From: Polyangiales bacterium
Lineage (GTDB): Bacteria; Myxococcota_A; Polyangia; Polyangiales; JADJQN01
Direction: 5' to 3'
Assembly: GCA_964202905.1 (NCBI GenBank)
Contig: CAXNJO010000006.1
Location: 128,001-192,000, forward strand
Length of the DNA: 64,000 nt
A program made the position numbers and the translations under genes. The notes beneath the pieces are model-generated. The model was not told where the DNA came from. It was given only the letters and a program-made list of their open reading frames with translations, and did not search any database. Of the stretch, positions 27,359 to 62,966 are shown piece after piece; position 1 is the stretch's first letter, and the number at the start of each line of letters is the position of its first letter.

Positions 27359-30657
<3,299 letters not shown>

Positions 30658-33545: not shown

Positions 33546-33564
33546 AGGCGCGCCCGCCCGGCCC

Positions 33565-34545
33565 TCACTGCGACGGCGTGTCGAGGGGCTCGCCCCCCAC
33601 GGGGCGCGGCGCGAAGAAGGTCTCGTGGATCGCGTCGCCGACGCCGTTGAGACGGTCCTGGAAGCCGTCGAGGTACTCGTGCAGCCCGCCCGCGACGATC
33701 CCGCGGATGTCGCCTTGCTCGAGCTCACCGCGCAGCCTTCCGAGCGCGACCTCGGCGCTCGTCGCCGCCGTCTCGGCCGTCGCGCCCGTGATCGCGTGCA
33801 GGCTGCGCTCGCCCTTGGTGGCGCAATAGAGCACCGAGCGCGGGAACTTGCGGTCGAGCAGCAGGAACTCGACGACGCGCGCGGGCTCGATGCGCCCGAA
33901 GCGCTTGCGGTACATCTCGAGCGCCGATGCGCTCTTGAGCAGCGAGACCCACTGCAGCTCGTCCCACGGCGTGCCGACGTCGTGCGGGTCGGGCAGCAGC
34001 AGGAAGTACTTCACGTCGACGATGCGCGAGGTCTTGTCGGCGCGCTCGAGCAGCCGCCCGAGTCGCCCGAAGTGCCAGGCCTCGTTGTGCGTCATCGTGA
34101 TGTACGTGATGCCGACGAAGAGGTGCGCGGCGAGCTTCACGTCGGTGTAGAAATCGTGCGGCGTGTCGAGCACGCCGGGGCGCGAGGCCGCCGCGCTCAC
34201 GGTGAGGAAGGCCTTGTTGACCTGCTCCCACATCTCCGAGGAGATGATCTCGCGCACGCTGCGCGCGTTCTCGCGGGCCGCGCGCAGGCAGGAGAGGATC
34301 GAGCTCCCGTACTCCGCGTCGAACGTGAGAAACTGCAGCACGTTCTCCCGCGTCGGAGCGCCGTATTTCTCGCGGAAATACGCGTCGTCGCCCGTGGTCG
34401 CGACGAGCGGGGCCCACTGCTGGTCCGCGCCATCGGGCATGTCGAGCAGCAGGTTGAGGTTCACGTCGACGAAGCGCGCGACGTTCTCCGCGCGCTCGAC
34501 GTAGCGGTTCATCCAATAGACGGAGTCGGCGACGCGGCTCAGCAT
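33565..34545 (-). CDS. Alpha-E domain protein (DUF403)
   Basis: MLSRVADSVYWMNRYVERAENVAR, ARENARSVREIISSEMWE, LERADKTSR, FPRS. Confidence 0.95.
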   Translation of the reverse strand: MLSRVADSVYWMNRYVERAENVARFVDVNLNLLLDMPDGADQQWAPLVATTGDDAYFREKYGAPTRENVLQFLTFDAEYGSSILSCLRAARENARSVREIISSEMWEQVNKAFLTVSAAASRPGVLDTPHDFYTDVKLAAHLFVGITYITMTHNEAWHFGRLGRLLERADKTSRIVDVKYFLLLPDPHDVGTPWDELQWVSLLKSASALEMYRKRFGRIEPARVVEFLLLDRKFPRSVLYCATKGERSLHAITGATAETAATSAEVALGRLRGELEQGDIRGIVAGGLHEYLDGFQDRLNGVGDAIHETFFAPRPVGGEPLDTPSQ

Positions 34546-34546
34546 C

Positions 34547-36022: not shown

Positions 36023-36183
36023 GCGCGGGGCCGAGCCTACGCGGAGCGCGCGCGCGGGATCAACGCCGAATCGCCCCGATCTGTCGGTATTTCGGCCGTG
36101 TTTCGGCGCGATGGCCCGTGCGGGGCGTCGCCGGCGGCACCGTGGATGCCGTCGCGCGTGGCGAGTCGGGTATAGTCGGCCGC

Positions 36184-48176: not shown

Positions 48177-49019
48177 GTGCGGCAGTACCACGCGCTGCTC
48201 GCGTCGCTGCTCGAGCATGGCCGCGAGCGCAGCGACCGCACCGGCACGGGCACCCTCGGGCTCTTCGGCGCGCAGCTCCGCTTCGATCTGCGCGAGGGCT
48301 TCCCGCTCCTCACGACGAAGAAGTTGCACGTCAAATCGATCGTCCACGAGCTGCTGTGGTTCCTGCGCGGCGAGACGAACGTCGCGTCGCTCCAGGCCGA
48401 GGGCGTGCGGATCTGGGACGAGTGGGCGACGCCCGCGCAGACGGCGCGCTTCGGTCGCGCGCCCGGCGAGCTCGGCCCCGTGTACGGGCACCAGTGGCGC
48501 AACTTCGGCGCGACGCGCCGCGCGGATGGCACCTACGAGCGCGACGGCGTCGACCAGATCGCGCGCATCGTCGATCAGATCCGGACGAACCCGAGCAGCC
48601 GGCGCCTGCTCGTGACCGGCTGGAATCCGCGCGAGGCCGACGAGGTCGCGCTCCCGCCCTGCCACACGCTCTTCCAGCTCTACGTGCAGGATGGCGCGCT
48701 GAGCTGTCAGCTCTACCAGCGCTCGGCCGACGTCTTCCTCGGCGTGCCCTTCAACATCGCGAGCTACGCGCTGCTCACGCAGATGATCGCGCACGTCACC
48801 GGCCTCGTGCCGCACGAGTTCGTCCACACCTTCGGCGACGTGCACCTCTACAAGAACCACGTGGAGCAGGCGCGCTTGCAGCTCACGCGCGCGCCGCGTC
48901 CGCTGCCGCGCATGCGCCTCGACCCTTCGGTGCGCGACCTCGTCGACTTCCGCTTCGAGCACTTCGCGCTCGAGGGCTACGATCCGCACCCGCGCATCAA
49001 GGCGGACGTCAGCGTGTAG
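48177..49019 (+). CDS. thyA: Thymidylate synthase
   Basis: [55 protein letters not shown]. Confidence 0.98.
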
Positions 49020-49035
49020 GCGAAGCGCGCGCCGC

Positions 49036-50109
49036 TCAGTTCACCGACTGGAACGCGCCCGCGATCGGCGCCTGCGCCCCGACGATGTACTGCGCGCGGC
49101 GGTTGCGCGCCTCGGCGGTGTCGTCCGGCGTCGGCACCGCGAGCGACGACTCACCGAGCCCGCGCGCGAGGACGGGGATGGTCAGGCCGCCGCGCCGCCG
49201 GAACCAGCGCGCGATGGCGAGCGCGCGCCGCTCGGAGAGGCGCGCGTTGTCCGCCGGGCTGCCGACGGTGTCGGTGTGGCCGAGCACGTAGAGCTTCGCC
49301 TGCAGATCCGCGCCGTGCTGGCGGACGGCCGCGAGGATGCGCTGGTAGGCGGCCTCGAGCTTCGGCTCTTCGCCGGGACGCACGAGGTCGCTCGCGGTCT
49401 CGAAGACCACGTCGTCGTGCGGAATGTCGACGCTGAAGGGCACGATCTCCATCTCCGTCCACGACTCGGAGGTGTCGAAGGCGCGCACCGTGAGCCTGCC
49501 CGCCGCGCGCGCGAGCGCGGGCCACGCGAGCGTGAGCGGGCTGCGCGGCGGCGCGCCCTGCAGGTCGGTCGTCGCCGTGTGCAGCAGGCTGCCGGCGGCG
49601 TCGGTGATCGTGAGCAGCGCGCGCCCGGCGGGGTTGGTGAGCGTGAAGCGGAGCGTGCGCGCCTCGAGGTCGACGTCCGCCTTGCGGAGCAGGATCTGCA
49701 AGCCCCGCGTCGCGGTCACGGTCGTCTCGAAGGAGAGGCTCGCGCGGCCCTCGGCCGTCTGCCCCGAGACCTCGACGCGCAGCGGGTGCACGCCCGGCGT
49801 GAGGCGGAAGGGCAGCACCTTCGTCGTGCCGCCGCGCACGGTCCCGAGCGGGCGCGTGAGCACGGCGCGACCGCCCTCGCGCGCGACGAGGCGCATGCCC
49901 CGCACGTCGGCGCTGACCGACACCGTGAAGGTCGGCTGCGCGCGCTCGAGATCGACGAGCTCGCTCACCTCGACGGCGACCGGCAGGGCGGCCTGCGCGT
50001 CCACGCGCGACGGCGCCGCGAGGAGCCCGAGCGCGAGCGTGAGCGCGGGGACGATGGCGCGGAGCGCGTGCGCAGCAGGTAGCGGGGCGGGGAGCGTGGC
50101 GTGGCGCAT
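49036..50109 (-). CDS. Secreted protein with a C-terminal OmpA-like peptidoglycan-binding domain
   Basis: Signal peptide; GHTDTVG..N..LSERRA, GLGE, NRRA. Confidence 0.88.
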   Translation of the reverse strand: MRHATLPAPLPAAHALRAIVPALTLALGLLAAPSRVDAQAALPVAVEVSELVDLERAQPTFTVSVSADVRGMRLVAREGGRAVLTRPLGTVRGGTTKVLPFRLTPGVHPLRVEVSGQTAEGRASLSFETTVTATRGLQILLRKADVDLEARTLRFTLTNPAGRALLTITDAAGSLLHTATTDLQGAPPRSPLTLAWPALARAAGRLTVRAFDTSESWTEMEIVPFSVDIPHDDVVFETASDLVRPGEEPKLEAAYQRILAAVRQHGADLQAKLYVLGHTDTVGSPADNARLSERRALAIARWFRRRGGLTIPVLARGLGESSLAVPTPDDTAEARNRRAQYIVGAQAPIAGAFQSVN

Positions 50110-50166
50110 CGCGCGAGGGTAGCGCGTCGCGGCGGGTCGTCGGCGCCCGTGTCACGCTCGCCGCGC

Positions 50167-50664
50167 ATGACGGCCGCGCTCTCGCCCCTCTCGCTCATCG
50201 CCGCGGTTGCGCGCGACGGCGTCATCGGCCGCGACGGCGCGCTGCCGTGGCACCTGCCCGAGGACCTGCGGCACTTCAAGCGCCTCACGCGCGGCCACGC
50301 GATCGTCATGGGCCGGCGCACCTTCGCGTCGATCGGCCGCGCGCTGCCCGAGCGCCGCAACCTCGTCGTCTCGCGCACGCTCGCGGCCGCGCCGCCGGGC
50401 GTCGAGGTGTTCCCCTCGCTCGAGGCCGCGCTCGACGCCGCGCGCGCGACGGACCCGGAGCCCTTCGTCATCGGGGGCGCGGCGCTCTACGCGGAGGCGC
50501 TCCCCCGCGCGACGACGTTGCACCTCACCGAGCTCGACCGCGACGTGCCGGGCGACGTGCGCTTCCCGGCCTTCGATCGCGCTGCGTTCCGGGTCGCCGA
50601 TCGCCGTCCGGCCGAGTCGGCGCCCGACGTGTGGTTCGTCACGCTCGTGCGCCACGCGCCCTGA
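50167..50664 (+). CDS. folA: Dihydrofolate reductase
   Basis: LIAAVARDGVIG, LPWHLPEDLRHFK, MGRRT, LPERRN, IGGA, GDVRFP. Confidence 0.97.
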   Translation: MTAALSPLSLIAAVARDGVIGRDGALPWHLPEDLRHFKRLTRGHAIVMGRRTFASIGRALPERRNLVVSRTLAAAPPGVEVFPSLEAALDAARATDPEPFVIGGAALYAEALPRATTLHLTELDRDVPGDVRFPAFDRAAFRVADRRPAESAPDVWFVTLVRHAP

Positions 50665-50788: not shown

Positions 50789-51448
50789 ATGGACACAGCG
50801 GCTTTCTATCGGGTCGAAGGCGCCATCGTCGGCCGTCCGGCCCTCGCGGCGGCGGCCTATCTCGTCGGCAACGCGCAGCACGTGCGCGATCGGATCCTCC
50901 GGCTCGGCGGCGTCGCGGCCTCGCTGCCCCTCGCGCTCGGCGGCGACCGGACGCTCGCGGCGCGCGTCGCGTGGATGGGCCTGCGCGGCATGAGCGAGGA
51001 CCGGCTCGCGGTGCTCGGCGAGGAGTACGGCGACCGCTACCTCGTGCCGGAGATCAAAGACCTCGCGCGGCAGCTCATCGCCGAGTCGCGCGCCCGCAAG
51101 CACCGCATCGTGCTCGTGAGCGACTCGCTCGACGTCGTGGTCGGGCCGCTCGCGCGCGCGCTCGGCGTGCCCGCGGCGGACCTCGTCGCCAACCGCGCCG
51201 AGCTCAACGCCGAGGGCCGCGCGACGGGGCGCCTCGCGGATCCGATCGTCGGTGGCGCCGTCGGCGGCACCTGGGTGCGCGCGTTCGCGAAGGAGCGCGG
51301 CATCGACCTCGAGCGCTCGTTCGTCTACGGCGCGAGCGGCGACGACGGCCTGCTGCTCTCGGCAGTGGGGCATGCGTGCGCGGTGACGCCGGACCGCGCG
51401 CTGCGGCGGCTCGCCCGCGACAACGGTTGGCCCGTGGTGGAAGCGTGA
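50789..51448 (+). CDS. HAD-IB (SerB-like) fold protein with a degenerate catalytic motif
   Basis: AAFYRVEG in place of FFDVDG; VLVSDSLD; YGASGDD..LLSAVG..AVTPDRALRRLA...WPV. Confidence 0.82.
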   Translation: MDTAAFYRVEGAIVGRPALAAAAYLVGNAQHVRDRILRLGGVAASLPLALGGDRTLAARVAWMGLRGMSEDRLAVLGEEYGDRYLVPEIKDLARQLIAESRARKHRIVLVSDSLDVVVGPLARALGVPAADLVANRAELNAEGRATGRLADPIVGGAVGGTWVRAFAKERGIDLERSFVYGASGDDGLLLSAVGHACAVTPDRALRRLARDNGWPVVEA

Positions 51449-51459: not shown

Positions 51460-53202
51460 ATGGACGCGCTCGAGCGCTCGAATCCCCGGCCCGCCGGTGC
51501 GTCCGGCGCGCTCTCGGTGCACGCGGCCTTCGCGGGCAGGCACGTGCTCGTCACCGGCGTGACGGGCTTCCTCGGCAAGGTGTGGCTCGGCATGCTGCTC
51601 GACCTCGTGCCGGGCGTCGGGCGCGTGTCGGTGCTCGTGCGCCCGCCGCGCCGCGCGAAGGGCGACGCGACCGCCGCGGCGACCGCCCGCTTCGAGAAGA
51701 TCGCGGCCACCGCGCCCGCGTTGCGCCCGCTCCGCGCGACGCATGGCGCGGGGCTCGGCGCGTTCCTCGACGCGAAGCTCGACGTCGTCGCGGGCGACGT
51801 CTCGCAGCCGCTCTGCGGGCTCGCGCCGCAGGAACTCGAGCGCCTCGCGAAGACGGTGGACGTCGTCGTGCATTTCGCGGGGCTCACCGACTTCGAGCCC
51901 GATCCGCGCGAGGCCGTCGAGGTGAACGTGCGCGGCGCCGCGCACGTCGCGGACGTCGCCGCGCGCCTGCGTGTGCCGCGGCTCGTGCACGTCTCGACGT
52001 GCTTCGTCGCGGGGTGCCGCGACGGCGAGATCGCCGAAGAGCGCGCGACGGGCACGACGCCGGACGGTCGGCCGATGGACGTCGCCAGCGTGGTCGAGAC
52101 GCTGCTCGCGCGGGCCGACGCGGTCGAGTCCAAGAGCGAGCGTCGCGGCGCCGCGCTGCGCCGGATCCGCGCGGAAGCGGGCGGCCACTACGCGCGCGAG
52201 CTCGCCTTCCCGAACACGTACACGCTGACGAAGGCGCTCGCGGAGCAACTGCTCGTCGAGCGCAGCGACGTGCGCGCGAGCGTCGTGCGCCCCGCTATCG
52301 TCGAGTGCGCGCGCGCTTACCCGTTCGCGGGCTGGAACGAGGGCATCAACACCAGCGGTCCGCTCGTCTGGCTGCTCGCGGGCCCGTTCTTCGAGCTCCC
52401 GTGTCGCCCGGACGCGCGCTTCGACGTGGTGCCCGTCGACGACGTCGCGAAGGGCACGATGCTCATGGTCGCCGCGATGCTCGGCGACGACGCGCCCGAG
52501 GTCGTGCAGCTCGGGACCTCGCACACGCGCCCCTTCACCGTCGGCCGCGCGGTCGAGCTGACGGGCCTCGGCGTGCGCAAGTACCACGATCGCCCCGAGG
52601 CGACGAAGCTCGAGAAGCTGCTCTTCCGCTACCTCGACGCGGTGCCCGTGCCGGCCGAGAGCGGCTCGCTCCTCTCGGTGCCGCGCCTGCGCCAGCACGC
52701 GCGCCGCCTCCGGACCTGGCTCGAGGACGTGCGCTTCGACGAGGCGCTGCCCACGACCGCGCGACGCGTCGCGGGGCAGCAGGTGTCGCGCGCGCAGCTG
52801 CGCGCCCACATGGCCGCGTCGGGCTTCGAGACGGTGCTCCGCCGCATCGACCAGATGCTCGCGCTCTTCAAGCCGTTCATCCACGACCACGACTGGGTGT
52901 TCCGCACCGACCGCATGACCGCGCTGAGCGCGCGCCTCGTGCCCGCCGAGCGCGCCCAGTTCGGGTGGGATCTGCGCGACCTCGACTGGCGCTCCTACTG
53001 GCTCGACGTGCAGATCCCCGGCCTCGCGACGTGGTGCCTGCCGCTGATGAACGGCAAGACCGTGCCCGACGACCCGCCGGCCCAGCCGCCGCTGCGCCTC
53101 GCGCGTGCGACGGCCGGGCTGCCGCCGACGTCCGCCGCGATCTCGAACGGCCACGTCGCGCACGGCGCCGCCGCGAACGCGGGCAGCGAGGCGCGCGCGT
53201 GA
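51460..53202 (+). CDS. Fatty acyl-CoA/ACP reductase (alcohol-forming FAR type)
   Basis: VTGVTGFLGKV, HVSTCFV, PNTYTLTK (YxxxK), RPAIVE, DVVPVD, C-terminal sterile-like DWRSYW; RBS GAGGAG. Confidence 0.9.
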   Translation: MDALERSNPRPAGASGALSVHAAFAGRHVLVTGVTGFLGKVWLGMLLDLVPGVGRVSVLVRPPRRAKGDATAAATARFEKIAATAPALRPLRATHGAGLGAFLDAKLDVVAGDVSQPLCGLAPQELERLAKTVDVVVHFAGLTDFEPDPREAVEVNVRGAAHVADVAARLRVPRLVHVSTCFVAGCRDGEIAEERATGTTPDGRPMDVASVVETLLARADAVESKSERRGAALRRIRAEAGGHYARELAFPNTYTLTKALAEQLLVERSDVRASVVRPAIVECARAYPFAGWNEGINTSGPLVWLLAGPFFELPCRPDARFDVVPVDDVAKGTMLMVAAMLGDDAPEVVQLGTSHTRPFTVGRAVELTGLGVRKYHDRPEATKLEKLLFRYLDAVPVPAESGSLLSVPRLRQHARRLRTWLEDVRFDEALPTTARRVAGQQVSRAQLRAHMAASGFETVLRRIDQMLALFKPFIHDHDWVFRTDRMTALSARLVPAERAQFGWDLRDLDWRSYWLDVQIPGLATWCLPLMNGKTVPDDPPAQPPLRLARATAGLPPTSAAISNGHVAHGAAANAGSEARA

Positions 53203-54365
53203 GCCACGTCTTCGTCACCGGTGCGACCGGCTACCTCGGCGGTTACACCGTCACGCGGCTCCTCCGCGACCACCCCGCGACGCGCGTCGCGCTCCTCGTG
53301 CGCGGGCGCGACGAGCGCGAGGCGACGGACAAGCTCTGGCGCTCTCTGCAGCTCCACATGGAGCCGCGCGAGTTCTGGGACGCGCTCTCGCGCGTGGACT
53401 TCGTGCTCGGTGATCTCACCTCGACGAAGCCGCGCCTCGGCATCGCGCCGGACGTCTACGAGCGCACCGTGCGCGGCATCGACTCGGTGCTGCACATCGC
53501 GGCCTCGCTGAACCGCAAGAGCGAGAAGGCCTGCCTCAACACCAACCTGCGCGGGACGCTCGCGGTGCTCGAGCTCGCGCGCGACGCGAAGACGCACGGC
53601 GGACTGCGTCGCTATTCGCACGTCTCGACCGTCGCGGTGTGCGGCCATCGCGACCGCGAGGTCGTCACCGAGGACGCGGCCATCGACTGGGACCGCTCCG
53701 ACTACGACCCGTACGGCCGCACGAAGAAGTTCTGCGAGCACATGGCGCACGTGCTCTTGCCGGACGTGCCGAAGACCATCTTTCGGCCGAGCATCGTGAT
53801 GGGCGACGCGACGCGCCCCGAGACGACGCAGTTCGACATGGTGCGCGCGTTCTGCGTGCTCGCGGATCTGCCCGTCGTGCCCGTCCGCGCCGAGGCGCGG
53901 CAGGACATCGTCAACGCCGACTGGGTCGGCCGCGCGATCGCGACCGTGCACATGAAGGACGCGCCGAAGTACGACTGCTACCACCTCTCGGCGGGGACGC
54001 GCTCGCTGTCCGCGGAGACGATCGCGGGCGCCCTCGCGGGGGCCGTCGGGCGTCGGCCGCCGCGCTTCGTCGGCGCCGCGGAGCAGCCCTTCGCGACGGC
54101 CGCGGAGCTGATGATGCGCTTCCCGAAGAAGAGCGCCGTCGCGCTCGTCGGCTCGCTGCTGCACGTCTTCCTGCCGTACATCACGTACGACACGGTCTTC
54201 GACAACGAGCGCATCGTGTCGGAGCTCGGCGAGGCGCCGGTGCCCTTCACGGGCTACTGCGCGGAGCTCTACCGCTGGGCGAAGCGTCACGACTTCGAGT
54301 ACCCGTATCGTCCGCTTCCGTCGCGGCCGGCGCAGGTGCAGGGCGCGGAGCTGGGCCATGTCTGA
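53199..54365 (+). CDS. Thioester-reductase-like extended SDR
   Basis: VTGATGYLG, HIAAS, HVST, YGRTK, RPSIV. Confidence 0.88.
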   Translation: MSHVFVTGATGYLGGYTVTRLLRDHPATRVALLVRGRDEREATDKLWRSLQLHMEPREFWDALSRVDFVLGDLTSTKPRLGIAPDVYERTVRGIDSVLHIAASLNRKSEKACLNTNLRGTLAVLELARDAKTHGGLRRYSHVSTVAVCGHRDREVVTEDAAIDWDRSDYDPYGRTKKFCEHMAHVLLPDVPKTIFRPSIVMGDATRPETTQFDMVRAFCVLADLPVVPVRAEARQDIVNADWVGRAIATVHMKDAPKYDCYHLSAGTRSLSAETIAGALAGAVGRRPPRFVGAAEQPFATAAELMMRFPKKSAVALVGSLLHVFLPYITYDTVFDNERIVSELGEAPVPFTGYCAELYRWAKRHDFEYPYRPLPSRPAQVQGAELGHV

Positions 54366-56055
54366 GGCCGAGCGCAACGAGGCGCCCGCCGAGGCGACGG
54401 GCCTCGCGCGGCGGGGCGCGGAGGCGTCGGAGGAGCGCCCGCGGAAGCGGGGCAGCAAGCTCCTCGCCGGGCTCGCGCGGGTCGCGGGCAAGGCCGCGAA
54501 GGCCGCGCTCGAGGTCGCCGGGCGCGAGCTCGATCCCGACCGGCTCCTGCAGCGCGCGATGGCGAGCACCATCGAGGCAGCGGCGAGCCGCTACGCGGTC
54601 GATCCCGGCGCGCAGTGGCGCCCGGGCGAGCCGCTGCGGCTGCTCTTCGCGGGCTACAGCGGCACGCGCAACACGGGCGCCGACGTGCGCGTCGAGGAGA
54701 TGGTCCGGCAGGTCCGTTGGCTCTTTGGCGACGAGCACGTCGCGCTCTCGCTGCTCACCATCGACCCGGCCCTCTCGCGCGGATATTTCCGCACCGTCGA
54801 GCAGCTGCACCTGCCGCAGTTCTTCCCGCCCTTCCTCTACGAGAAGGTGCACGGCGTGCACGGCGTCATCGCGTGCGAAGGCTCGATGTTCAAGTCGAAG
54901 TTCGCGAACGCGCTCTCGACGATGATGGTCGGCGCGCTCGGCGTCGCGGCTGCCGAGAACAAGCTCGCCATCGGCTATGGGGGTGAAGCCGGCGCGATGG
55001 ATCCGTCACTGCAGGACCTCGTCCGCACCTACTGCCGCGACGCGCTCATCGTCGTGCGCAACAAGGAGAGCGGCGAGGTGCTCGCGGACCTCGGCGTGCG
55101 CAGCAAGCCCGGCACCGACACCGCGTGGACGTTCGAGCCCGCCGGGCCCGAGGTCGGTGCGCGCGTGCTCCGCGCGGCGGGCTGGGACGGCGAGACGCCG
55201 GTGCTCGTCGTCTGTCCGATCAACCCCTTCTGGTGGCCGGTGAAACCCGACGTCAGCAAGGGCGTCGTGCAGGCGCTCACCGGGGCGCACGACGAGTCGC
55301 ATTACGACTCGTTCTACTTCCACAAGGACGGCGACGCGGTCCGCGAGAAGCAGCGCCGCTACCTCGGCGCGCTCGCCGACGGCATCACGTCGTTTCTCGC
55401 GGAGCACGACGCCTTCCCCGTGATCGTGGGGATGGAGCAGCTCGACCGCCGCGCGTGCGAGGGGCTCTCGAAGCTCGTCGCGGAGCGCGCGGGACGCGAG
55501 GCGCCGCCCGTGATCGTCTCGGACGAGCACGACATGTACGAGATGGTCAGCGTGCTGCGCACGGGCCGCGCGCTGCTCTCGTCGCGCTACCACGCGATCG
55601 TCACCTCGATGCCGGGGCTCGTGCCCTCGGCGGGCGTGACGATGGACGAGCGCATCCGCAACCTCATGGCCGATCGCGGCCAGCCGGAGCTCTGCCTCGG
55701 CGTCGAGGACGCCGACCTCGCCGAGCGCGTCAGCGTCGTGCTGGGGCGGCTCTGGACGGATGGGGACGCGGTCGCCGACGGCATCGGCCGCACGGTGGTC
55801 ACCAACCTCGAGCGCATGGGCGAGATGGGCGTGACGCTCGTCGACTTCGTGCGCGCGCGGCACCCCGGAGTGCCGGTGCGCGCGGGCGTTGGCAGCGCCG
55901 CCTCCGGGGGCGAGGGCGACCCGTGGGCGCACCTGCCGCCGCTGCCGCCGGCCGTCGCCGCGCTCGTCGCGAAGTACCGCGGAACGCCCACGAACACGGG
56001 CGATGCGCGCCCCGTCGCGCGGGCGCTCGCCGAGCACGTGGGATCGCAGCCTTGA
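54358..56055 (+). CDS. Polysaccharide pyruvyl transferase family protein
   Basis: GYSGTRNTGAD, vRNkES, DTAW, SSRYHA; family motifs GYxGxxNxGD, RDxxS and RxH are recognisable. Confidence 0.78.
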   Translation: MSEAERNEAPAEATGLARRGAEASEERPRKRGSKLLAGLARVAGKAAKAALEVAGRELDPDRLLQRAMASTIEAAASRYAVDPGAQWRPGEPLRLLFAGYSGTRNTGADVRVEEMVRQVRWLFGDEHVALSLLTIDPALSRGYFRTVEQLHLPQFFPPFLYEKVHGVHGVIACEGSMFKSKFANALSTMMVGALGVAAAENKLAIGYGGEAGAMDPSLQDLVRTYCRDALIVVRNKESGEVLADLGVRSKPGTDTAWTFEPAGPEVGARVLRAAGWDGETPVLVVCPINPFWWPVKPDVSKGVVQALTGAHDESHYDSFYFHKDGDAVREKQRRYLGALADGITSFLAEHDAFPVIVGMEQLDRRACEGLSKLVAERAGREAPPVIVSDEHDMYEMVSVLRTGRALLSSRYHAIVTSMPGLVPSAGVTMDERIRNLMADRGQPELCLGVEDADLAERVSVVLGRLWTDGDAVADGIGRTVVTNLERMGEMGVTLVDFVRARHPGVPVRAGVGSAASGGEGDPWAHLPPLPPAVAALVAKYRGTPTNTGDARPVARALAEHVGSQP

Positions 56056-57689
56056 CGACTGAACCGTCGTTCATCGAGGTCTTCCTCGACGTCCTCGCGA
56101 AGGAGCCCGCGAAGGCGCACGTCACCGAGATCCACGGCCCGACGCCACGCCCCTTCGACGGCACGTCGCTGTGCGAACTCGTCGCCCGCGCCCGCGGCGC
56201 GTTGCGGTCGCGCGGCGTGCGCCCCGGCGACCGCGTGGGCCTGCTCGCGGCGAACTCCGCGCAGTGGGTCGCGGCCGACGTCGCGCTGCTCGCGGAGGGC
56301 GCGATCGTCGTGCCGCTCTACGCGCGGCAGGAGCCCGCCGAGCTCGCGGGGATGCTGCGCGACGCGGGCGCGACGCTCGTCGTCGCGAGCACCGACGCCC
56401 TCGCTGCCGCGCTCGCCGCGCACCTGCCCGGCGTGCCCGCGTGCCTCTTCGCCGAGCTCTTCGCGGGTGAGCCCGTGCGCGAGCCCGCCGCGCCGCGCGC
56501 GCCCGGCGACTGCGTCACCATCGTCTACACCTCGGGCACGAGCGGCGAGCCGAAGGGCGTGATGGTCACGCGCGCGGGCGTCGACCACATGCTGCCCGTC
56601 ACGCGCGACTCGCTGCGCGCGCTGATGGGCGCGCAGGCCGGGAACGACCGGCTCTTCCACTACCTGCCGTTCTGCTTCATGGGCTCGCGGATCGTCTTGT
56701 GGACGGCGCTCTACCGCGGCTCCGGGATCCTCGTCTCGACGAGCCTCGAGAACCTGGTCGAGGAGATGAAGACGGCGCGGCCGCACTACTTCCTCAACGT
56801 CCCGGCGCTGCTCGAGCGCATCAAGAAGGGCGTCGAGGGCAAGCTCGCGACGAAGCCGGCGCCCGTGCGCGCGCTCTATGCGCGTGGCCTTCAGGCAGCG
56901 GCACGCAGCGCGGCCGGCGAGGCGTCGATCGTCGATCGCGCCGCGCTCGCGCTCGCGCGTCGCGTCGTGTTCGCGACGATCCGCGCGCAGATCGGGCCGG
57001 ATCTCGTGTGCCTCATCTGCGGGAGCGCGCCGCTGCACCCGGACACGCAGCGTTGGTTCGAGACGCTGGGCATCCCCGTCTACCAGGTCTACGGGCTCAC
57101 GGAGACGACCGCGATCGTGACGATGGACGTGCCTGGGCACGCGGTCGCGGGGCGCGTCGGCACCGCGATCCGCGGCGTCGAGCTGAAGCTCGGCGAGGGC
57201 GACGAGCTGCTCGTGCGCGGGCCCAACGTCTTCGCCGGCTACTGGCAGCGGCCCGAGGCGACGGCCACCGCGCTCGCGGACGGCTGGTTCCACACGGGCG
57301 ATCAGTGCGGCCTCGACGCGCGCGGCAACCTCGAGGTCATCGGGCGCGTCGGCAACATCCTCGTCGCCGAGTCGGGGCACAACATCGCGCCCGAGCCCAT
57401 CGAGACGAAGCTCCTCGCCGAGCTGCCGGGCGCCGAGAACTGCGTCGTGCTCGGCCACGGGCGCCCGTACCTCGCGGCCATCGTCACGGGCAAGGTCGCG
57501 ACCGACGACGTGCAGCGCGCGGTCGATCGCGTGAACGAGACGCTGCCGCACTACCGGCGCGTGCGCCGCTTCCACGTCTCCGCCGCGCCCTTCACGATCG
57601 AGAGCGGGCTGCTCACCGCGAACCAGAAGCTGCGCCGCAAGGCCATCGAGAAGCACTACGCGGACGCCGTGAAGGAGCTCTACGCGTGA
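56052..57689 (+). CDS. AMP-dependent long-chain acyl-CoA/ACP ligase
   Basis: YTSGTSGEPKG, YGLTET, FHTGD, NIAPEPIE, KLRRK; TTG start overlapping the upstream stop. Confidence 0.92.
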   Translation: MTTEPSFIEVFLDVLAKEPAKAHVTEIHGPTPRPFDGTSLCELVARARGALRSRGVRPGDRVGLLAANSAQWVAADVALLAEGAIVVPLYARQEPAELAGMLRDAGATLVVASTDALAAALAAHLPGVPACLFAELFAGEPVREPAAPRAPGDCVTIVYTSGTSGEPKGVMVTRAGVDHMLPVTRDSLRALMGAQAGNDRLFHYLPFCFMGSRIVLWTALYRGSGILVSTSLENLVEEMKTARPHYFLNVPALLERIKKGVEGKLATKPAPVRALYARGLQAAARSAAGEASIVDRAALALARRVVFATIRAQIGPDLVCLICGSAPLHPDTQRWFETLGIPVYQVYGLTETTAIVTMDVPGHAVAGRVGTAIRGVELKLGEGDELLVRGPNVFAGYWQRPEATATALADGWFHTGDQCGLDARGNLEVIGRVGNILVAESGHNIAPEPIETKLLAELPGAENCVVLGHGRPYLAAIVTGKVATDDVQRAVDRVNETLPHYRRVRRFHVSAAPFTIESGLLTANQKLRRKAIEKHYADAVKELYA

Positions 57690-58510
57690 CCGCGCCGTTC
57701 GTCGGAGAGACGCTCTCGTACGCGCACGTCGGCACGACGCTCGAGGTCACGCTGCACCGCTCGGTGCCGGGCGCCTCGTGCAACGAGATCGGCGAGCAGA
57801 CGCTGCGCGAGCTCGAGGCCCTCGTCGCGTATCTCGCCGCCGGTGCCGGGGGAGCGCGCGCGCTGCTCTTCGCGAGCAGCGTGCCGCGCGGCTTCTGCGC
57901 GGGCGCGGATCTGCGCGCGCTCTACGAGGGCATGGTCGCGCGCCGCGGCGCGGGGGCGCCGCCGGTCGGCGAGGTGCGCGCGTTTCTCGACCGCATCCAC
58001 GCCGTCTTCGACGCGCTCGACACCACGCCGCTGACCACCGTCGCGGCGTTGCACGGGGTGGTGTTCGGCGGCGGCTTCGAGCTCGCGCTCACCTGCGACG
58101 TGCTCGTCGCGGACAAGACCGCGCGCTTCTGCTTCCCGGAGCTGCGGCTCGGGCTCGTGCCCGGGTTCGGCGGCATCCCGCGGCTCGCGCGGGACGTCGG
58201 CAACGCCGTCGTGCGCGACCTGCTCTTCACCGGGCGCTCGCTCAACGCGCAGCGCGCGCAGCAGATCGGGCTCGTCTCGCAGCTCGTCGCGCCCGGCGAG
58301 GCCGTGCACGTCGCGCGCAAGGTCGCGGAGCAGGCGGCGCGCTTCGACGCGGCGACCTCGGCGGCCGCCAAGGCCTTCGCGAAGCCGCTCCCGAGCGAGT
58401 GGCTGAACCGCGAAAAAGACACGTTTTGCGCGCTCTTCGCCTCGCCGGTGGTCGAGGCCGCGCTCCACAAGTTCGTCACCAGCACCGACGCGAGACCGTA
58501 CCTGCCATGA
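57686..58510 (+). CDS. Enoyl-CoA hydratase (crotonase) family protein
   Basis: FCAGAD, GGGFE and PELRLG; both catalytic Glu present. Confidence 0.92.
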   Translation: MTAPFVGETLSYAHVGTTLEVTLHRSVPGASCNEIGEQTLRELEALVAYLAAGAGGARALLFASSVPRGFCAGADLRALYEGMVARRGAGAPPVGEVRAFLDRIHAVFDALDTTPLTTVAALHGVVFGGGFELALTCDVLVADKTARFCFPELRLGLVPGFGGIPRLARDVGNAVVRDLLFTGRSLNAQRAQQIGLVSQLVAPGEAVHVARKVAEQAARFDAATSAAAKAFAKPLPSEWLNREKDTFCALFASPVVEAALHKFVTSTDARPYLP

Positions 58511-58758
58511 ACGCCTCATCCAGCCCCGACCTCGAGACCCGCCTGCTCACCCTCGCCGCCGCGCGCTTCGGCAAGCCCGTCGCCTCGCTCGCGCCTGGCG
58601 ACGACGTCTTCGAGAAGCTCGGCATCGACAGCATCCAGGCGATGGAGATGCTCACCGAGATCGAGACGACCTTCGGCGTCGAGGTCCCCGACTACGAGCT
58701 GCAGGGCGTGACGACGTTCGCCGGGATCGCGGAGCTCGTGCGCCGGAGGCTCGGCTGA
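58507..58758 (+). CDS. Acyl carrier protein
   Basis: 83 aa, LGIDSI phosphopantetheine site, IETTFGV. Confidence 0.93.
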   Translation: MNASSSPDLETRLLTLAAARFGKPVASLAPGDDVFEKLGIDSIQAMEMLTEIETTFGVEVPDYELQGVTTFAGIAELVRRRLG

Positions 58759-60572
58759 TGGACGCGGCCCCCGAGACCCGGCCCGCCGCGCCGCGCGATG
58801 CCCGCGCGTACGCGATGCTCGATGCCTCGCGCTACACGAGCGTCGGCGAGATGCTCCGCGACGCGCTCGTGCAGTTCAAGACGCACGTCGCGTTCACCGA
58901 GCTCGATCGCCGCCGCGTCACGCAGCGGCTCAGCTACCTCGACGTCAAGCGCGCGGTCGAGCGGCTCGCGCGGCGCCTCGAAGACGCGGGGATCGGCGCG
59001 GGGGACCGCGTCGCCATCGTGATGACGAACCAGGCGCGCTGGCCGATCGCGGCGATGGCCGCGTTCTTCCGCGGCGCGGTCGTCGTCCCCATCGATTACA
59101 AGCTCACGCCGAAGGAGCGCGAGGCGCTGCTCGCGCACGCGAAGCCCCGCGCGCTCGTCACGGAGTACCCGCTGTTCGCGCCGCACGCCGCGGGCGCGCT
59201 CGAGGCCGTGTCGCTCGTGCTCGTGAGCGAGGCGCCGCCGAACGCGCGCCTCGGCCACGCGCAGCGCTGGGGTGCGCTCGACGGCGCGGACGAGCCGGCC
59301 GGCTCCGACGCGCCGCCGACCTTCGTGCCGCGCGCGCGCGAGGACGTCGCGACCATCGTCTACTCCTCGGGCACCGGCGGTCAGCCGAAGGGCTGCATGC
59401 TCCCGCACCGCGCGTACCTCGCGCAGTACGCGGCGCTCACGGCGCTCTTCCCGCTGGTCGCGGGCGATCGCTACTTCTCGATCCTGCCGACCAACCACGC
59501 GATCGACTTCATGTGCGGCTTCCTCGGGCCGCTCTGCGGCGGCGCGATGGTCGTGCACCAGCGCACGCTGCGCCCCGAGTTCCTCACCGCGACGATGAAG
59601 AGCGAGCGCGTCACGCACATGGCCGTCGTGCCGCTGCTGCTCACGGCCTTCGAGCGCGCGATCCGCGAGAAGCTCGACGCGCTCCCCGGCTGGCAGCGCG
59701 CGGCCGTCGAAGCGCTGATGCAGGTGAACGAGCGGCTCACCGAGCGGCGCCCGAACCGGCTCGTCAGCCGCACGCTGTTGCGTCCCATCCACGAGGCCTT
59801 CGGCGGCGAGCTGCGCGTGCTCTTCTGCGGCGGCGCGTTCGTCGAGCAGGAGCGCGCGGAGCTCTTCTACCGCCTCGGGCTGCCCGTCGCGATCGGCTAC
59901 GGGCTCACCGAGGCCAGCACCGTCGCGACGGTCAACGATCTGCGGCCTTTCCGGGGGGATTCCGTCGGCCGCGCGGTCGACGGCGTCTCGCTGCGCATCG
60001 TCGACGCGGACGCGAGCGGCGTCGGCGAGGTGCAGCTCCACGGGCCGACGCTGATGCTCGGCTACCTCGACGACCCCGAGCAGACGCGCGCTGCCTTCAC
60101 GGAAGATGGTTGGCTGCGCACGGGCGATCTCGGGCACCTCGACGCCTCGCACCACCTGCACCTCGTCGGGCGCAGCAAGAACATGATCGTCACGCGCGGC
60201 GGCAAGAACGTGTACCCCGAGGACATCGAGGGCGCGTTCGGCGGCGTCGCGTGCGAGGAGCTCGCGGTCTTCGCGGAGGGCTACCTCTGGCAGACGCGCG
60301 GCGAGCTCGTCGGCGAGCGGCTCGTCGTCGTCGCGCGCCTGAAATCGGGCGCGACCGAGGCCGAGCGGCTGCGCTTCACCGAGGCGCTGCACGCCGCGAA
60401 CCAGCGGCTCGCCGACTACAAGCGCGCGCACGCCCTGCTGCTGACGGACGAGGCCTTCCCGCGGACGGCGTCGATGAAGATCAAGCGCGGCCCCCTCGCG
60501 GAGGACTTGCGCGCGCGGTACGCGCAGGCCGACATGCTGTGGCTCGGCGAGCCGGTCGAGGCGGTGCGGTGA
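58758..60572 (+). CDS. Second AMP-dependent acyl ligase
   Basis: YSSGTGGQPKG, GYGLTE, LRTGD, GKNVYPEDIE, PRTASMKIKR. Confidence 0.92.
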   Translation: MDAAPETRPAAPRDARAYAMLDASRYTSVGEMLRDALVQFKTHVAFTELDRRRVTQRLSYLDVKRAVERLARRLEDAGIGAGDRVAIVMTNQARWPIAAMAAFFRGAVVVPIDYKLTPKEREALLAHAKPRALVTEYPLFAPHAAGALEAVSLVLVSEAPPNARLGHAQRWGALDGADEPAGSDAPPTFVPRAREDVATIVYSSGTGGQPKGCMLPHRAYLAQYAALTALFPLVAGDRYFSILPTNHAIDFMCGFLGPLCGGAMVVHQRTLRPEFLTATMKSERVTHMAVVPLLLTAFERAIREKLDALPGWQRAAVEALMQVNERLTERRPNRLVSRTLLRPIHEAFGGELRVLFCGGAFVEQERAELFYRLGLPVAIGYGLTEASTVATVNDLRPFRGDSVGRAVDGVSLRIVDADASGVGEVQLHGPTLMLGYLDDPEQTRAAFTEDGWLRTGDLGHLDASHHLHLVGRSKNMIVTRGGKNVYPEDIEGAFGGVACEELAVFAEGYLWQTRGELVGERLVVVARLKSGATEAERLRFTEALHAANQRLADYKRAHALLLTDEAFPRTASMKIKRGPLAEDLRARYAQADMLWLGEPVEAVR

Positions 60573-61471
60573 GCGACGCGTTCGTCACCGTCGTCAACGT
60601 CGCGGCCGGCGGCGGGCGCTGCGGGGCGCGGGCCCGCGAGGTGCTTCCGCGGCTGCGCGAGGCGGGGCTCGCGCTCGACGTGCGCGAGACGCGCGCGCCG
60701 GGCGACGCGACGCGGATCGTGCGCGAGGCGTACGGCGCGGGGGCGCGGCGCTTCCTCGCGGTCGGCGGCGACGGCACCACCTACGAGGTGGTCAACGGTC
60801 TCTTCCCCGCGGCCCAGGGCGCGCCGGACGTGACGCTCGGGATGCTGCCGCTCGGCACGGGCAACTCCTTCCTGCGCGACTTCGGGATCGTCGACGCGGA
60901 GGGCGCGATCGGCGCGCTGCTCCGCGGGACGACCCGCGCGATCGACGTCGTGCGCGCCGAGCACGCGGAGGGCGTGATTCACTACGTGAACCTGCTCAGC
61001 GTCGGCTTCAGCGCGACGGTCGGTGCGCTCACGAACCGGCGCTACAAGCCGTTCGGCCAGGCGGGCTACGCGCTCGCGGTCGTGCAGGGGCTCGCGCGGC
61101 TCGCGCACCCGACGTTCCCGCTGCGCCTCGACGACGCGGACACGATCGACCTGCGGCCGTGCACGCTGCTCTCGTTCTCGAACAGCCGCTGCACGGGCGG
61201 CACGATGCAGATGGCGCCCGATGCCGACCCGACCGACGGCGCGCTCGACGTGATCCGCGTGGGCGCGATGGGGCGGCGCGAGCTGCTGCGCACCTTCCCG
61301 AAGATCTACCAGGGCAAGCACGTGGGCCATCCGGCGGTGTCGGCGACGCGCGCGCGGCGCGTGACGTTCGCGGACCCGTTCGCGACGGATGTGATGGTGG
61401 ACGGGGAGGTCCTCGAGCTGACGCTGCGCGAGCTCCGGGTGCTGCCGGGCGCGCTGCAGGTGAGGGTGTGA
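60569..61471 (+). CDS. Diacylglycerol/lipid kinase family protein (DgkB/YegS-like)
   Basis: VN..AG, GGDGT..EVVNG, PLGTGNSF, DG.LD, VDGE. Confidence 0.93.
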   Translation: MSDAFVTVVNVAAGGGRCGARAREVLPRLREAGLALDVRETRAPGDATRIVREAYGAGARRFLAVGGDGTTYEVVNGLFPAAQGAPDVTLGMLPLGTGNSFLRDFGIVDAEGAIGALLRGTTRAIDVVRAEHAEGVIHYVNLLSVGFSATVGALTNRRYKPFGQAGYALAVVQGLARLAHPTFPLRLDDADTIDLRPCTLLSFSNSRCTGGTMQMAPDADPTDGALDVIRVGAMGRRELLRTFPKIYQGKHVGHPAVSATRARRVTFADPFATDVMVDGEVLELTLRELRVLPGALQVRV

Positions 61472-62319
61472 GTCCGATGGACGGGGAGCGCACGATGGAC
61501 GCGCAGCGTGGGTCGGTGGGCGAGGTTGAGGGCGAGGCCGGAGCGGTGCCCGTGTCGCTCGAGCCGGTGCGGCCGCTCGACTACGTGAAGTCGGCCGCGC
61601 TCTGGGCCGCGGGCGTCGCGTGGCTGGTGCCGACGCTCGGGCCGATGACGCTGCTGAACGCGACGGTCGGCCCGGAGCGCATCGAAGCGATCTCGCGCGT
61701 GTACACGCGCACGCAGGTCGCGCTCACCGGCTCGCGGTGGCGCACGGTGGTGCACCCCGAGGTCGACCCGAAGGGCGTCTACCTCTTCGCGCAGAACCAC
61801 ACGAACCACTTCGATCACGTCACGCTCTACGCGGCGACACCGCACTTCAAGCAGGGTGTCGAGCTCGAGTCGCACTTCTCGTATCCGTTCTACGGCTGGT
61901 TCATGAAGGCGCGCGGCACGATCCCGGTGCGCCCGGGCTCGAAGGGCCAGACCCCGGAGATCCTCGCGCGCTTCAAGTCCGAGGTCGACAAGGGGCACTC
62001 GATCCTCGCCTTCCCCGAGGGCACGCGCACGCTCGACGGGCGCGTCGGGCGCTTCCGCACGGGCACCTTCTTCATCGCGCGCGATCTCGGCATCCCCGTG
62101 GTGCCCGTCGCGGTGACCGGCATGTACGAGGTGATGCGCAAGGGCAGCTATCTGCTGCGTCCCGGGCACACGGTGACCGTCCACGTCGAGCGCCCGATCC
62201 CCACGGCCGGGCTGCGCGACGACGAGGTCCCCGCGCTCGCCGCCGAGGTCCAGCGCGTCGTGGCCGCGCGCATCGACACGTACTGGCGCGAGAAGGCGGA
62301 GCGGGGCGCCGCGCGATGA
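61468..62319 (+). CDS. Lysophospholipid acyltransferase (PlsC family)
   Basis: NHTNHFD (HxxxxD), FPEGTR, PVVPV. Start 61468/61477/61495. Confidence 0.92.
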   Translation: MSPMDGERTMDAQRGSVGEVEGEAGAVPVSLEPVRPLDYVKSAALWAAGVAWLVPTLGPMTLLNATVGPERIEAISRVYTRTQVALTGSRWRTVVHPEVDPKGVYLFAQNHTNHFDHVTLYAATPHFKQGVELESHFSYPFYGWFMKARGTIPVRPGSKGQTPEILARFKSEVDKGHSILAFPEGTRTLDGRVGRFRTGTFFIARDLGIPVVPVAVTGMYEVMRKGSYLLRPGHTVTVHVERPIPTAGLRDDEVPALAAEVQRVVAARIDTYWREKAERGAAR

Positions 62320-62966
62320 CCACGGCGCTCAAGGCCGACGCGAAGCCCGACGGGCGCACCGAGCGCGCGCAGGCGATCCGCCTCGAGCGCCGCGCGCACC
62401 TGCTCGACTCCGCGCTCCGCACCTTCGCGGCGCGGGGCTATCACCAGACCAGCATCGCGGACATCGTCGACGAGGCGGGCGTCGCGCGCGGCACGTTCTA
62501 CCTGTATTTCGAGTCGAAGAGCGCCGTCTTCCTCGCGCTGCTCGACGAGCTGCTCGCGCACCTGCGCGCGAACGTCGTCGGCGTCGACGTGACGCCGGGC
62601 GCGGCGCCGCTCGCCGCGCAGCTCCTCGACATCGTGCGCCGCATCCTGCGCACGGTGCTCGAGAAGCGCGCGCTCGCGAACATCGTCTTCCGCGAGGCCA
62701 TCGGGCTCGACGCGGAGGTCGACGCGAAGCTGCGCGTGTTCTACGCGTCGCTGCACCGCTTCCTCGTCGAGGCGCTCGAGCTCGGGCAGCAGACGGGCGC
62801 GGTGCGCGGGACACTCGACGTCGACGCGAGCGCGTCCTGCATCCTCGGCTCGATCAAGCAGGTGCTCGAGCAGTATTTCGTGCAGCAGGGCGAGCGCGAC
62901 TTCGACGTCGAGCGCTTCGCCCGCGCGATCCTCGACTACAACCTGCACGGCGTGCTCGCGCGCTGA
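62316..62966 (+). CDS. TetR/AcrR family transcriptional regulator
   Basis: FAARGYHQTSIADIVDEAGVARGTFYLYFESK. Confidence 0.95.
   Translation: MTTALKADAKPDGRTERAQAIRLERRAHLLDSALRTFAARGYHQTSIADIVDEAGVARGTFYLYFESKSAVFLALLDELLAHLRANVVGVDVTPGAAPLAAQLLDIVRRILRTVLEKRALANIVFREAIGLDAEVDAKLRVFYASLHRFLVEALELGQQTGAVRGTLDVDASASCILGSIKQVLEQYFVQQGERDFDVERFARAILDYNLHGVLAR

Follow-up and report, generated by a model that had tools for sequence, protein, structure and literature searches.

The window analysed here, that is the whole stretch of 64,000 nucleotides from a Polyangiales bacterium (assembly GCA_964202905.1, contig CAXNJO010000006.1, positions 128,001 to 192,000 of the forward strand), carries at 54358..56055 on the + strand a gene, hereafter PT, encoding a diverged protein of the pyruvyl-transferase fold. 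Profile comparisons identify it as a member of a well-defined and uncharacterised clade of this fold, whose genes lie in lipid operons. Since the window is about 74% G+C, raw lists of open reading frames (ORFs) are crowded with spurious frames. Codon-position GC (0.70/0.55/0.91 in the PT frame) picks a single + strand frame over 54358-56055, and the GC3 frame plot indicates + strand coding throughout the same interval. The ATG at 54358 is the only start codon in frame in the scan from the stops at 54109/54112 to about 54360; the ORF ends with the stop at 56055, giving 565 aa, and its first 8 nt lie within the end of the gene upstream. An earlier annotation of this DNA, the sequence-only reading, had given these coordinates, this length and a peptide, KLLAGLARVAGKAAKAALEV, all of them correct when compared with the ORF and its translation, the peptide being PT residues 34-53. 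A scan for promoters and terminators met no promoter-like site and a single terminator-like one, which lies on the opposite strand; shuffled sequences gave no fewer.

PT belongs to an operon of eleven + strand genes which, according to Pfam and NCBIfam scans, form one translationally coupled run, with ten junctions of which eight are overlaps of 1-8 nt and two are gaps of 11 and 5 nt. The run opens with a HAD-IB-like protein, a predicted pseudo-phosphatase (50789..51448; Pfam HAD E 6.7e-16, TIGR01490 E 1.2e-19), followed by a fatty acyl-CoA reductase (FAR, 51460..53202) composed of an NAD_binding_4 domain (PF07993 E 9.9e-45) and a Sterile C-domain (PF03015 E 1.3e-10), with the motifs GxxGxxG at residue 33 and YxxxK at residue 254. 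Next comes a thioester-reductase-like short-chain dehydrogenase/reductase (TR, 53199..54365; PF07993 E 1.5e-38, TIGR01746 E 2.8e-32, MxcG R-domain E 6e-18), which also has GxxGxxG and YxxxK and shares 4 nt with FAR and 8 nt with PT. Immediately downstream of PT lies ACS1, a FadD11-like acyl ligase with an AMP-binding_C_3 domain (56052..57689; PF00501 E 1e-59, PF23562 E 8.1e-11, NF038343 E 1.7e-62). TR and ACS1 are the reductase and the acyl ligase between which the sequence-only reading had rightly placed PT.

The second half of the operon starts with a crotonase of the enoyl-CoA hydratase type (ECH, 57686..58510; PF00378 E 7.9e-35). It keeps both Glu motifs, GGGFE and FPE, which we take to be those of the two catalytic glutamates known from the rat enzyme, and it should for that reason be a real hydratase. 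A stand-alone acyl carrier protein (ACP) of 83 aa (58507..58758; PF00550 PP-binding E 1.8e-13) is masked by a spurious ORF of 326 aa (57778..58758), whose end it forms, and overlaps ECH by 4 nt and the next gene by 1 nt. That gene is ACS2, a long-chain acyl ligase (58758..60572; PF00501 E 1.7e-70, PRK06187 E 9.8e-77). It is followed by a lipid kinase of the YegS/DAGK type (60569..61471; PF00781 E 3.6e-27, PF19279 E 1.4e-32) that passes the TIGR00147 cut-off (134.7 vs 118.65 bits) and has GGDG at residue 66, by a PlsC-type lysophospholipid acyltransferase (61477..62319; PF01553 E 2.2e-21, HX4D motif at residue 108) and by a TetR-family regulator (62316..62966; PF00440 E 1.1e-17), which overlaps PlsC by 4 nt and is the last gene. 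The operon thus contains two ligases, two thioester/acyl reductases and one hydratase. No acyl-CoA dehydrogenase was found among its recurrent neighbours, either in the family scans of the window or by tblastn on the loci described below.

The first gene deserves a comment of its own. Motif I of HAD enzymes is F-D-x-D-G. The window protein reads F-R-V-E-G at this place. Of 59 aligned homologues one lacks its N-terminus; among the 58 in which the motif can be read, 56 also have F-R-V-E-G and the other two F-(R/V)-(A/S)-A-D-G. The nucleophilic Asp is therefore replaced in the window and in all 58 homologues, by Arg or, in one homologue, by Val, and the protein is probably a conserved pseudo-phosphatase and not a phosphatase. 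A role as a phosphatase opposing the lipid kinase was considered and set aside on this ground, so that the operon need not contain two enzymes working against each other. Acidobacterial loci have the HAD-like protein and FAR in one chain, with the former at the N-terminal end (e.g. L065:2063-4450, 796 aa).

The sequence-only reading had assigned PT to the pyruvyl-transferase family. PT fails both curated family cut-offs: the match to PS_pyruv_trans PF04230 is confined to residues 219-418 and reaches 19 of the 25.3 bits required (E 1.4e-3), and that to the CsaB family TIGR03609 reaches 41.4 of 213.1 bits (E 1.1e-10, residues 95-443). A precomputed PF04230 match is present in many other clade members, among which the protein P0182 scores 58 bits. 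An alignment of 74 clade members, 23-91% identical to PT, was compared by hhalign with 12 canonical PF04230 proteins from Myxococcota genomes (family E-values 7e-43 to 3e-22). The two profiles match with a probability of 99.7% and E 4e-26 over 363 columns, covering PT residues 94-503. This comparison with canonical pyruvyl transferases, which had been proposed as a check, supports the family homology. PT can be regarded, at the level of profiles, as firmly homologous to the ketal-pyruvyl transferases across the catalytic core; the family call stands, on a weaker footing than had been implied given the scores below the Pfam and NCBIfam cut-offs.

The conserved catalytic core has two lobes and spans residues 93-505 (54634..55872; hhalign 94-503, VIA-align rows 90-504). 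An AlphaFold model of PT built on the clade alignment (pLDDT 91, pTM 0.86) has the GT-B fold of two Rossmann lobes, on which VIA-align and Foldseek agree. With VIA-align, PimA reaches Z 20.8 and the pyruvyl transferase Pvg1p (5ax7_B) Z 16.8, at rank 21, with a root-mean-square deviation of 3.5 over 255 aligned residues. Generic GT-B glycosyltransferases thus outscore Pvg1p structurally, at only 7-16% identity, and Foldseek likewise ranked generic GT-B enzymes first, 5ax7 not being among the matches listed. The fold alone cannot separate pyruvyl transferases from glycosyltransferases; sequence profiles do. Neither glycosyltransferase Pfam families nor the EPSP_synthase-type family matched PT at E up to 0.01. 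Searches of the PDB returned 0 matches with the whole PT sequence, none significant with the clade profile (5ax7 at E 1.3, chance matches to IpaD at E about 0.09) and only estradiol dehydrogenase (E 0.37) with residues 350-470. The ESM Atlas search with PT yielded its own clade only, and a search of the genome itself gave no other PF04230-like gene.

The residues that bind phosphoenolpyruvate (PEP) are R148, R306, H308 and K328 in CsaB and R217, R337, H339 and K361 in Pvg1p, where D106 is needed on the acceptor side, the D106A variant being inactive, according to the available part of PMC10435577, which also reports that CsaB K328R remains active. Our comparison of the PEP site concerns the Arg, Arg-x-His and Lys positions, the loop Arg (CsaB R207) having no placed counterpart. 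The canonical profile meets 5ax7 at 'NKGD', 'RDrqS' and 'DRLHAHIL'. R234 of PT is the counterpart of the canonical invariant Arg in the 'RD..S' motif of 5ax7 and is invariant in the clade. R410-Y-H412 (55585..55593) occupies the hhalign columns of the PEP-binding R-x-H (CsaB R306/H308, Pvg1p R337/H339), with H412 invariant and R410 conserved in at least 90% of the 74 members, and R432 stands in the column of the canonical invariant Lys, itself conserved in at least 90%. The residues invariant in the clade are R234, D254, P294, D363, H412 and D430. As far as these alignments go, three PEP-binding positions are kept and the fourth shows a conservative change from Lys to Arg. The sequence-only reading was to be given up if PEP-binding residues were absent or a profile search spoke against the family; R234, R410 and H412 are present and R432 replaces Lys, so that it is overturned neither from this side nor from that of the profiles. 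Their conservation, complete or at 90% and above in 74 members that share 23-91% identity with PT, also argues for a working active site.

The acceptor side looks different. In the column of the canonical acceptor Asp (N-x-G-D) PT has Ala108, followed by Asp109, which is conserved in at least 90% of the clade, so that the motif becomes N-T-G-A-D; this could be a register shift of one residue or a true change of acceptor handling. PT also carries a clade-specific insert at residues 287-335 (55216..55362), CPINPFWWPVKPD ... HY..YFH. It is Trp/Phe-rich and about 50 residues long, about 32 of them, in mid-insert, facing a gap in the canonical profile. Its CPINPFWWPV columns are conserved at 70-90%, P294 is invariant and N289, F321 and Y335 reach at least 90%. 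Both the Asp shift and the aromatic insert fall where acceptor handling is expected, and they suggest that the acceptor differs from that of the canonical enzymes. The insert also accounts for the extra length of the conserved core, about 480 residues; the length of 565 aa, on which the sequence-only reading had remarked, is as stated, and part of it belongs to a lineage-specific head and tail.

These data bear on whether PT might have lost or changed its donor chemistry, using some other phosphorylated or nucleotide-activated donor or serving as a non-catalytic scaffold for lipid enzymes. The scores under the curated Pfam and NCBIfam cut-offs, the placing of nucleotide-sugar GT-B enzymes such as PimA above Pvg1p, the Lys to Arg change at one PEP position and the Asp shift in the acceptor motif would all agree with such a change. 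On the other hand, the PEP-binding positions are kept but for one conservative replacement, of a kind compatible with activity in CsaB K328R (PMC10435577, available part), their conservation extends over the 74 members aligned, and glycosyltransferase families find no match on PT at E up to 0.01. We consider a changed donor very unlikely.

The clade is sharply delimited and highly conserved, its members in two phyla being 50-90% identical. The protein search gave 7318 relatives at E <=1e-3 among 7997 candidates scored, the best of them 59-91% identical to PT and mainly from Myxococcota, and a library clustered at 50% identity gave 697 representatives at E <=1e-3, of which 193 at <=1e-30. When the clade profile was run against 301 Myxococcota genomes, 35 matches at E <=1e-121 were obtained in 34 genomes; the next-best match was at 6e-23, and canonical pyruvyl transferases follow from there upward. 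Clade members and canonical pyruvyl transferases were the only proteins matched in these genomes, and by this measure the clade is set apart from the canonical enzymes by about 100 orders of E-value. Its distribution is patchy: besides the 34 of 301 Myxococcota genomes, a sample of 301 genomes taken around one acidobacterial carrier (Acidobacteriota) contains it in 12. One acidobacterial genome, that of locus L020, holds beside its intact copy a second clade match (G302:C11:670533-671733) in two pieces (E 5.5e-87 and 2.1e-49), which may be a broken duplicate.

Neighbourhoods were examined for 80 of the 571 relatives found in a scan of named genomes. Their labels are 25 of Myxococcota type, 44 of Acidobacteriota type and 11 uninformative or odd. 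Paraliomyxa miuraensis (L041) is the sole cultured organism among them, and in a search from a Blastocatellia homologue every named carrier in the 120 matches listed was a metagenome-assembled genome. Partners were counted by tblastn with the operon proteins of the window, on the same strand and the expected side, in those loci that had enough flank. Upstream of PT, TR is present in 67/73 loci (median of 54 nt from the end of TR to the start of the PT match), FAR in 63/68 and the HAD-like protein in 60/66. Downstream, ACS1 is found in 52/65, ECH in 54/60, ACS2 in 49/57, the lipid kinase in 46/55 and PlsC in 36/49, and a TetR homologue was seen in 13 loci. The lipid neighbours of PT are thus conserved across Myxococcota and Acidobacteriota. 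In five loci (L024, L026, L030, L073 and L078) an unrelated insertion follows PT.

This context speaks to the possibility that PT is an ordinary glycan pyruvyl transferase whose lipid neighbours are coincidental. Public annotations do name clade members 'polysaccharide pyruvyl transferase WcaK-like'; these are automatic names. Over 80 loci from two phyla, PT keeps company with these lipid genes; it is found fused to lipid enzymes, as described below, and the clade lies far from the canonical enzymes in profile searches. The statement of the sequence-only reading that no sugar genes lie near PT was borne out as well. Glycosyltransferase, sugar-nucleotide and polysaccharide-export families have no match in the 34 window ORFs scanned, namely 16 between 44.3 and 63.9 kb, the ACP and 17 elsewhere in the window, the family scans leaving aside about 14.8-17.5, 24.3-27.3, 36.8-40.7 and 42.9-44.3 kb. 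Glycan genes are also absent from the atypical or gapped loci, whose neighbours are FG-GAP proteins, SecDF, RecJ, solute-binding proteins and a serpin. A glycan enzyme in chance company appears to us barely credible.

Three further kinds of gene were seen next to the operon in other genomes. In five of the 80 loci, an upstream ORF of 709 aa encodes a radical-SAM protein with an HMPTM-type N-terminal zinc ribbon (e.g. L049:4204-6330 (+)), an architecture that presumably resembles that of tetraether synthase (Tes) homologues. Just upstream in acidobacterial loci lie isopropylmalate/homocitrate-synthase-like (HMGL-like) and isopropylmalate-dehydrogenase-like genes (L057:3980-5179 and L057:5204-6316 (+)), relatives of which were met in 7 and 12 loci, respectively. 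These leucine-pathway genes could provide an iso-branched chain supply or reflect chance synteny.

Three fusion proteins bear on the partners of PT. P0182 (967 aa) joins PT to a following ligase, which has the architecture of ACS1 and aligns with it over 497 aa at 31% identity (E 2e-79). P0393 (1348 aa) consists of a ligase, then an ACP, then PT, and P0133 (640 aa) has the C-terminal 'Sterile' domain of FAR ahead of PT. Taken together, these fusions put PT between a reductase that forms alcohols and enzymes that activate carboxylates. The ligase of P0393 bears a PilZ domain within its adenylation domain, a hint of control by cyclic di-GMP.

The P0393 fusion also adjoins PT to a carrier protein, and a stand-alone ACP is present within the operon. 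PT could therefore act with PEP on a carrier-bound or other lipid intermediate, for instance the hydroxyl of a 3-hydroxyacyl-ACP or -CoA or a lysolipid, and so modify another head group or a tail; the aromatic insert indicates an acceptor site unlike that of canonical enzymes, without saying in what way. The fusion of the FAR C-domain to PT and the invariable order FAR-TR-PT point instead to a reduced substrate, an alcohol, and we met no case of thioester-bound pyruvylation in those parts of the literature that were available. A carrier-bound acceptor seems improbable to us.

The sequence-only reading had suggested a lipid alcohol or diol as acceptor, and both the gene context and the three fusions would fit this. 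Our preferred reading, which we hold tentatively and which falls somewhat short of an even chance, is that PT is a diverged PEP-dependent enzyme of the pyruvyl-transferase fold, encoded within a conserved lipid operon, whose acceptor for the enolpyruvyl group of PEP is a fatty alcohol and not a sugar. Such a transfer leaves the acceptor with a new carboxylate, and among the products of the operon are enzymes that could turn the three-carbon unit into glycerol. In such a scheme, FAR would convert acyl-CoA to a fatty alcohol. PT would add this alcohol to C2 of PEP, with departure of phosphate, giving a 2-alkoxyacrylate, that is an enolpyruvyl ether with a new free carboxylate. ACS1 would convert this carboxylate to a thioester, by construction an enoyl thioester, so that no dehydrogenase would be needed, and the crotonase would put water on C3 to give a 2-O-alkyl-glyceroyl thioester. 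TR would then reduce the thioester to the alcohol, producing 2-O-alkylglycerol. The YegS-type kinase would phosphorylate one primary hydroxyl and PlsC would acylate the other one, leading to an ether analogue of phosphatidic acid with its alkyl chain at sn-2 and its glycerol carbons supplied by PEP. Acyl groups might be provided or carried by ACP and ACS2, and TetR might control the operon.

The chemistry supposed here for PT is that of MurA and EPSP synthase, which add a single hydroxyl to C2 of PEP with loss of phosphate to form an enolpyruvyl ether, their acceptors being UDP-N-acetylglucosamine and shikimate-3-phosphate. The scheme would use every conserved gene and would account for the presence of two ligases and two reductases. 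After the action of the kinase, it alone among the readings considered would leave a free hydroxyl for PlsC. We nevertheless regard the complete proposal, in which PEP provides the glycerol backbone of an ether phospholipid that has its alkyl chain at the middle carbon, the operon's end product being an sn-2-alkyl phosphatidic acid analogue, as rather doubtful.

Several observations weigh against the fatty-alcohol scheme. MurA and EPSP synthase are unrelated to PT in fold and family, and what known members of the PT fold make is ketals from diols and not enol ethers from single alcohols. Given the change in the acceptor Asp column, catalysis may also be different in ways that we do not foresee. 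ACS1 was not found downstream in 13 of 65 loci, several Myxococcota loci passing directly from PT to ECH, and three loci (L004, L009 and L036) show PT without any partner nearby. Each fusion is a single database protein, for which a frameshift merging overlapping neighbour genes is possible. Being patchy, the clade cannot represent the general ether route of either phylum. Finally, the ethers described in myxobacteria sit at sn-1 (PMC9131029, available part), whereas the scheme predicts sn-2.

The enol ether scheme has to be weighed against one in which PT keeps the ketal chemistry of its relatives and pyruvylates a lipid diol, after which ACS1 would activate the carboxylate of the anionic 1,3-dioxane or dioxolane. 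The diol could be an alkane-1,3-diol, made by the hydratase and the reductases from an enoyl or 3-hydroxyacyl thioester, or the vicinal diol of a monoalkyl- or monoacylglycerol. All characterised relatives make ketals on diols, as described in the accessible part of PMC10435577. A precedent on a lipid exists too: in dioxanopeptin biosynthesis of Chitinimonas koreensis, DxpH forms a 1,3-dioxane pyruvate ketal on the lipid tail of a lipopeptide, from a diol and with PEP, in vitro (PMC12964715, accessible part). Moreover, a true hydratase and two reductases in the operon could yield a 1,3-diol, and a PT-ligase fusion suits any carboxylate product. Other features of the operon fit less well. Its conserved genes come without an acyl-CoA dehydrogenase to provide the enoyl substrate. 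The thioester of a ketal carboxyl would have no double bond for the hydratase, yet ECH follows ACS1. Once the ketal is formed and the lipid phosphorylated, the hydroxyl for PlsC would be gone, leaving the kinase and PlsC unexplained, and the acceptor Asp column is unlike that of the ketal-forming enzymes. Ketal formation on a lipid diol is in our view unlikely, though it has to be taken seriously.

DxpH resembles the predicted PT, in so far as the description available allows comparison: it is a pyruvyltransferase whose donor is PEP and whose acceptor, borne by a lipid, is not a sugar. DxpH tailors a finished lipopeptide of polyunsaturated fatty acid-nonribosomal peptide synthetase origin by way of a diol ketal, whereas the PT gene lies in an operon of primary-lipid type with FAR, kinase and PlsC. 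Action on a lipid, which the sequence-only reading had considered unusual for the family, thus has a precedent in DxpH (PMC12964715, available part). With CsaB of Paenibacillus alvei, Pvg1p of Schizosaccharomyces pombe (PDB 5ax7) and WcaK-type enzymes, PT shares the catalytic core, the GT-B-like fold and the PEP positions. It differs from CsaB and Pvg1p in scoring below the family cut-offs, in forming a separate clade, in the N-T-G-A-D motif, in the aromatic insert and in its lipid instead of glycan context. Its predicted acceptor would be a fatty alcohol, and its product an enol ether in place of a ketal.

Two other routes to ether lipids can be compared. The AGPS route of eukaryotes and myxobacteria (GNPAT, AGPS and FAR; MXAN_1676-1674) and the anaerobic Ger/PlsA route place an sn-1 ether on a backbone derived from dihydroxyacetone phosphate (DHAP) or glycerol-3-phosphate, or reduce an existing ester. 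The predicted end, an alkyl ether glycerolipid, is the same as for the PT operon, and FAR is common to the AGPS route and to this operon. Unlike these routes, the PT scheme would take its backbone from PEP and place the ether at the middle carbon.

The closest parallel in gene content is the elb operon of Myxococcus xanthus, which, as described in the accessible part of PMC9131029, encodes the HAD-like ElbB, ElbD with FAR-like, ligase, ACP and AGPAT domains, and the NAD-dependent ElbA and ElbE, and in which the ether-forming step is unknown. Compared on this description, the two operons have the same inventory of domains (HAD-like, FAR, NAD-dependent reductase, ligase, ACP and PlsC-type), carried by separate genes in the window, and elbA-E lack what the PT operon adds, namely PT, the crotonase, the second ligase and the lipid kinase. 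In the genome of the window, no ORF combines NAD_binding_4 with Acyltransferase, hence no ElbD-type fusion is seen there. The PT clade was not found in 267 of the 301 Myxococcota genomes, whereas elbD is reported in all three myxobacterial suborders (PMC9131029, accessible part). We also considered PT as the counterpart of M. xanthus ElbC, described as of 'unknown function'; this is unlikely, as the clade profile matches nothing of the kind in most Myxococcota genomes. The available text of PMC13012113 describes the elb and MXAN_1676-1674 operons without mention of 'pyruvyl', and that of a sponge-symbiont preprint (10.64898/2026.06.23.733905) describes elb-like clusters with kinases and acyltransferases without mention of 'pyruv'. 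No paper linking a pyruvyl transferase with fatty acyl-CoA reductase, synthetase, acyltransferase, lipid kinase, ether lipid or ElbD, and no description of the PT operon, was found among the papers listed from the literature searched, which left subscription journals mostly uncovered.

The sequence-only reading had also pointed to an amphipathic N-terminal extension that could bind membrane. In the model, residues 1-30 are disordered and residues 34-57 (54457..54528) form a helix with pLDDT 72-81. Its hydrophobic moment is 0.5-0.6 and its net charge +2 to +5 in windows of 18 residues, the moment being among the ten highest of the protein. The helix is thus real in the model, cationic and amphipathic. 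It is not a feature of the family: an N-terminal stretch of at least 58 residues precedes the conserved core in only 4 of the 74 members aligned. The tblastn match begins at query residue 54-64 in 47 of the 80 loci; in 23 it reaches residue 40 or further towards the N-terminus. Being lineage-specific, the helix cannot explain how the clade in general would reach lipids or membranes; it may assist association with the membrane in its own lineage, without defining the clade.

As for the rest of the window, thyA and a dihydrofolate reductase gene are found directly upstream of the lipid operon (48177-50664), with a gene of the OmpA family between them on the opposite strand, and in a close relative (L001) thyA and the dihydrofolate reductase gene have the same arrangement upstream of the operon. 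Further away, at 27355-36838, is a cluster of genes for a DUF2126 amidoligase/transglutaminase-like protein, a GATase_4-transglutaminase, an Alpha-E protein and a circularly permuted ATP-grasp protein, a conserved and poorly understood system of peptide-ligase type. A protein of 865 aa with a neutral/alkaline ceramidase N-terminal domain (E 1.7e-18) is encoded at 10700-13297 (+) and adjoined by an ABC1 atypical kinase at 13314-14813 (-), which may bear on sphingolipid turnover.

The formation of alkyl ether bonds in aerobic bacteria is unsettled, and bacterial ether lipids underlie the climate proxies based on brGDGTs (branched glycerol dialkyl glycerol tetraethers), in whose synthesis ether formation is still open, as stated in the available part of PMC13274423. 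According to the accessible part of PMC13159169, all alkyl-ether producers screened had Ger, except Acidobacteria; the Acidobacteria without Ger present an open need that a route such as the one proposed could meet. Were the fatty-alcohol scheme correct, the PT operon would represent a third route to bacterial ether lipids, proceeding in an undescribed way and without the enzymes of the AGPS or Ger/PlsA routes. The glycerol backbone would be made from PEP without glycerol-3-phosphate or DHAP, and the resulting sn-2 ethers would have a distinctive isotope-labelling pattern. The reach of such a route would be limited by the patchiness of the clade, found in about 11% of the sampled Myxococcota and 4% of the sampled Acidobacteriota genomes. 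For the family itself, the range of reactions of the pyruvyl-transferase fold would grow from ketals on glycans to enol ethers of lipids.

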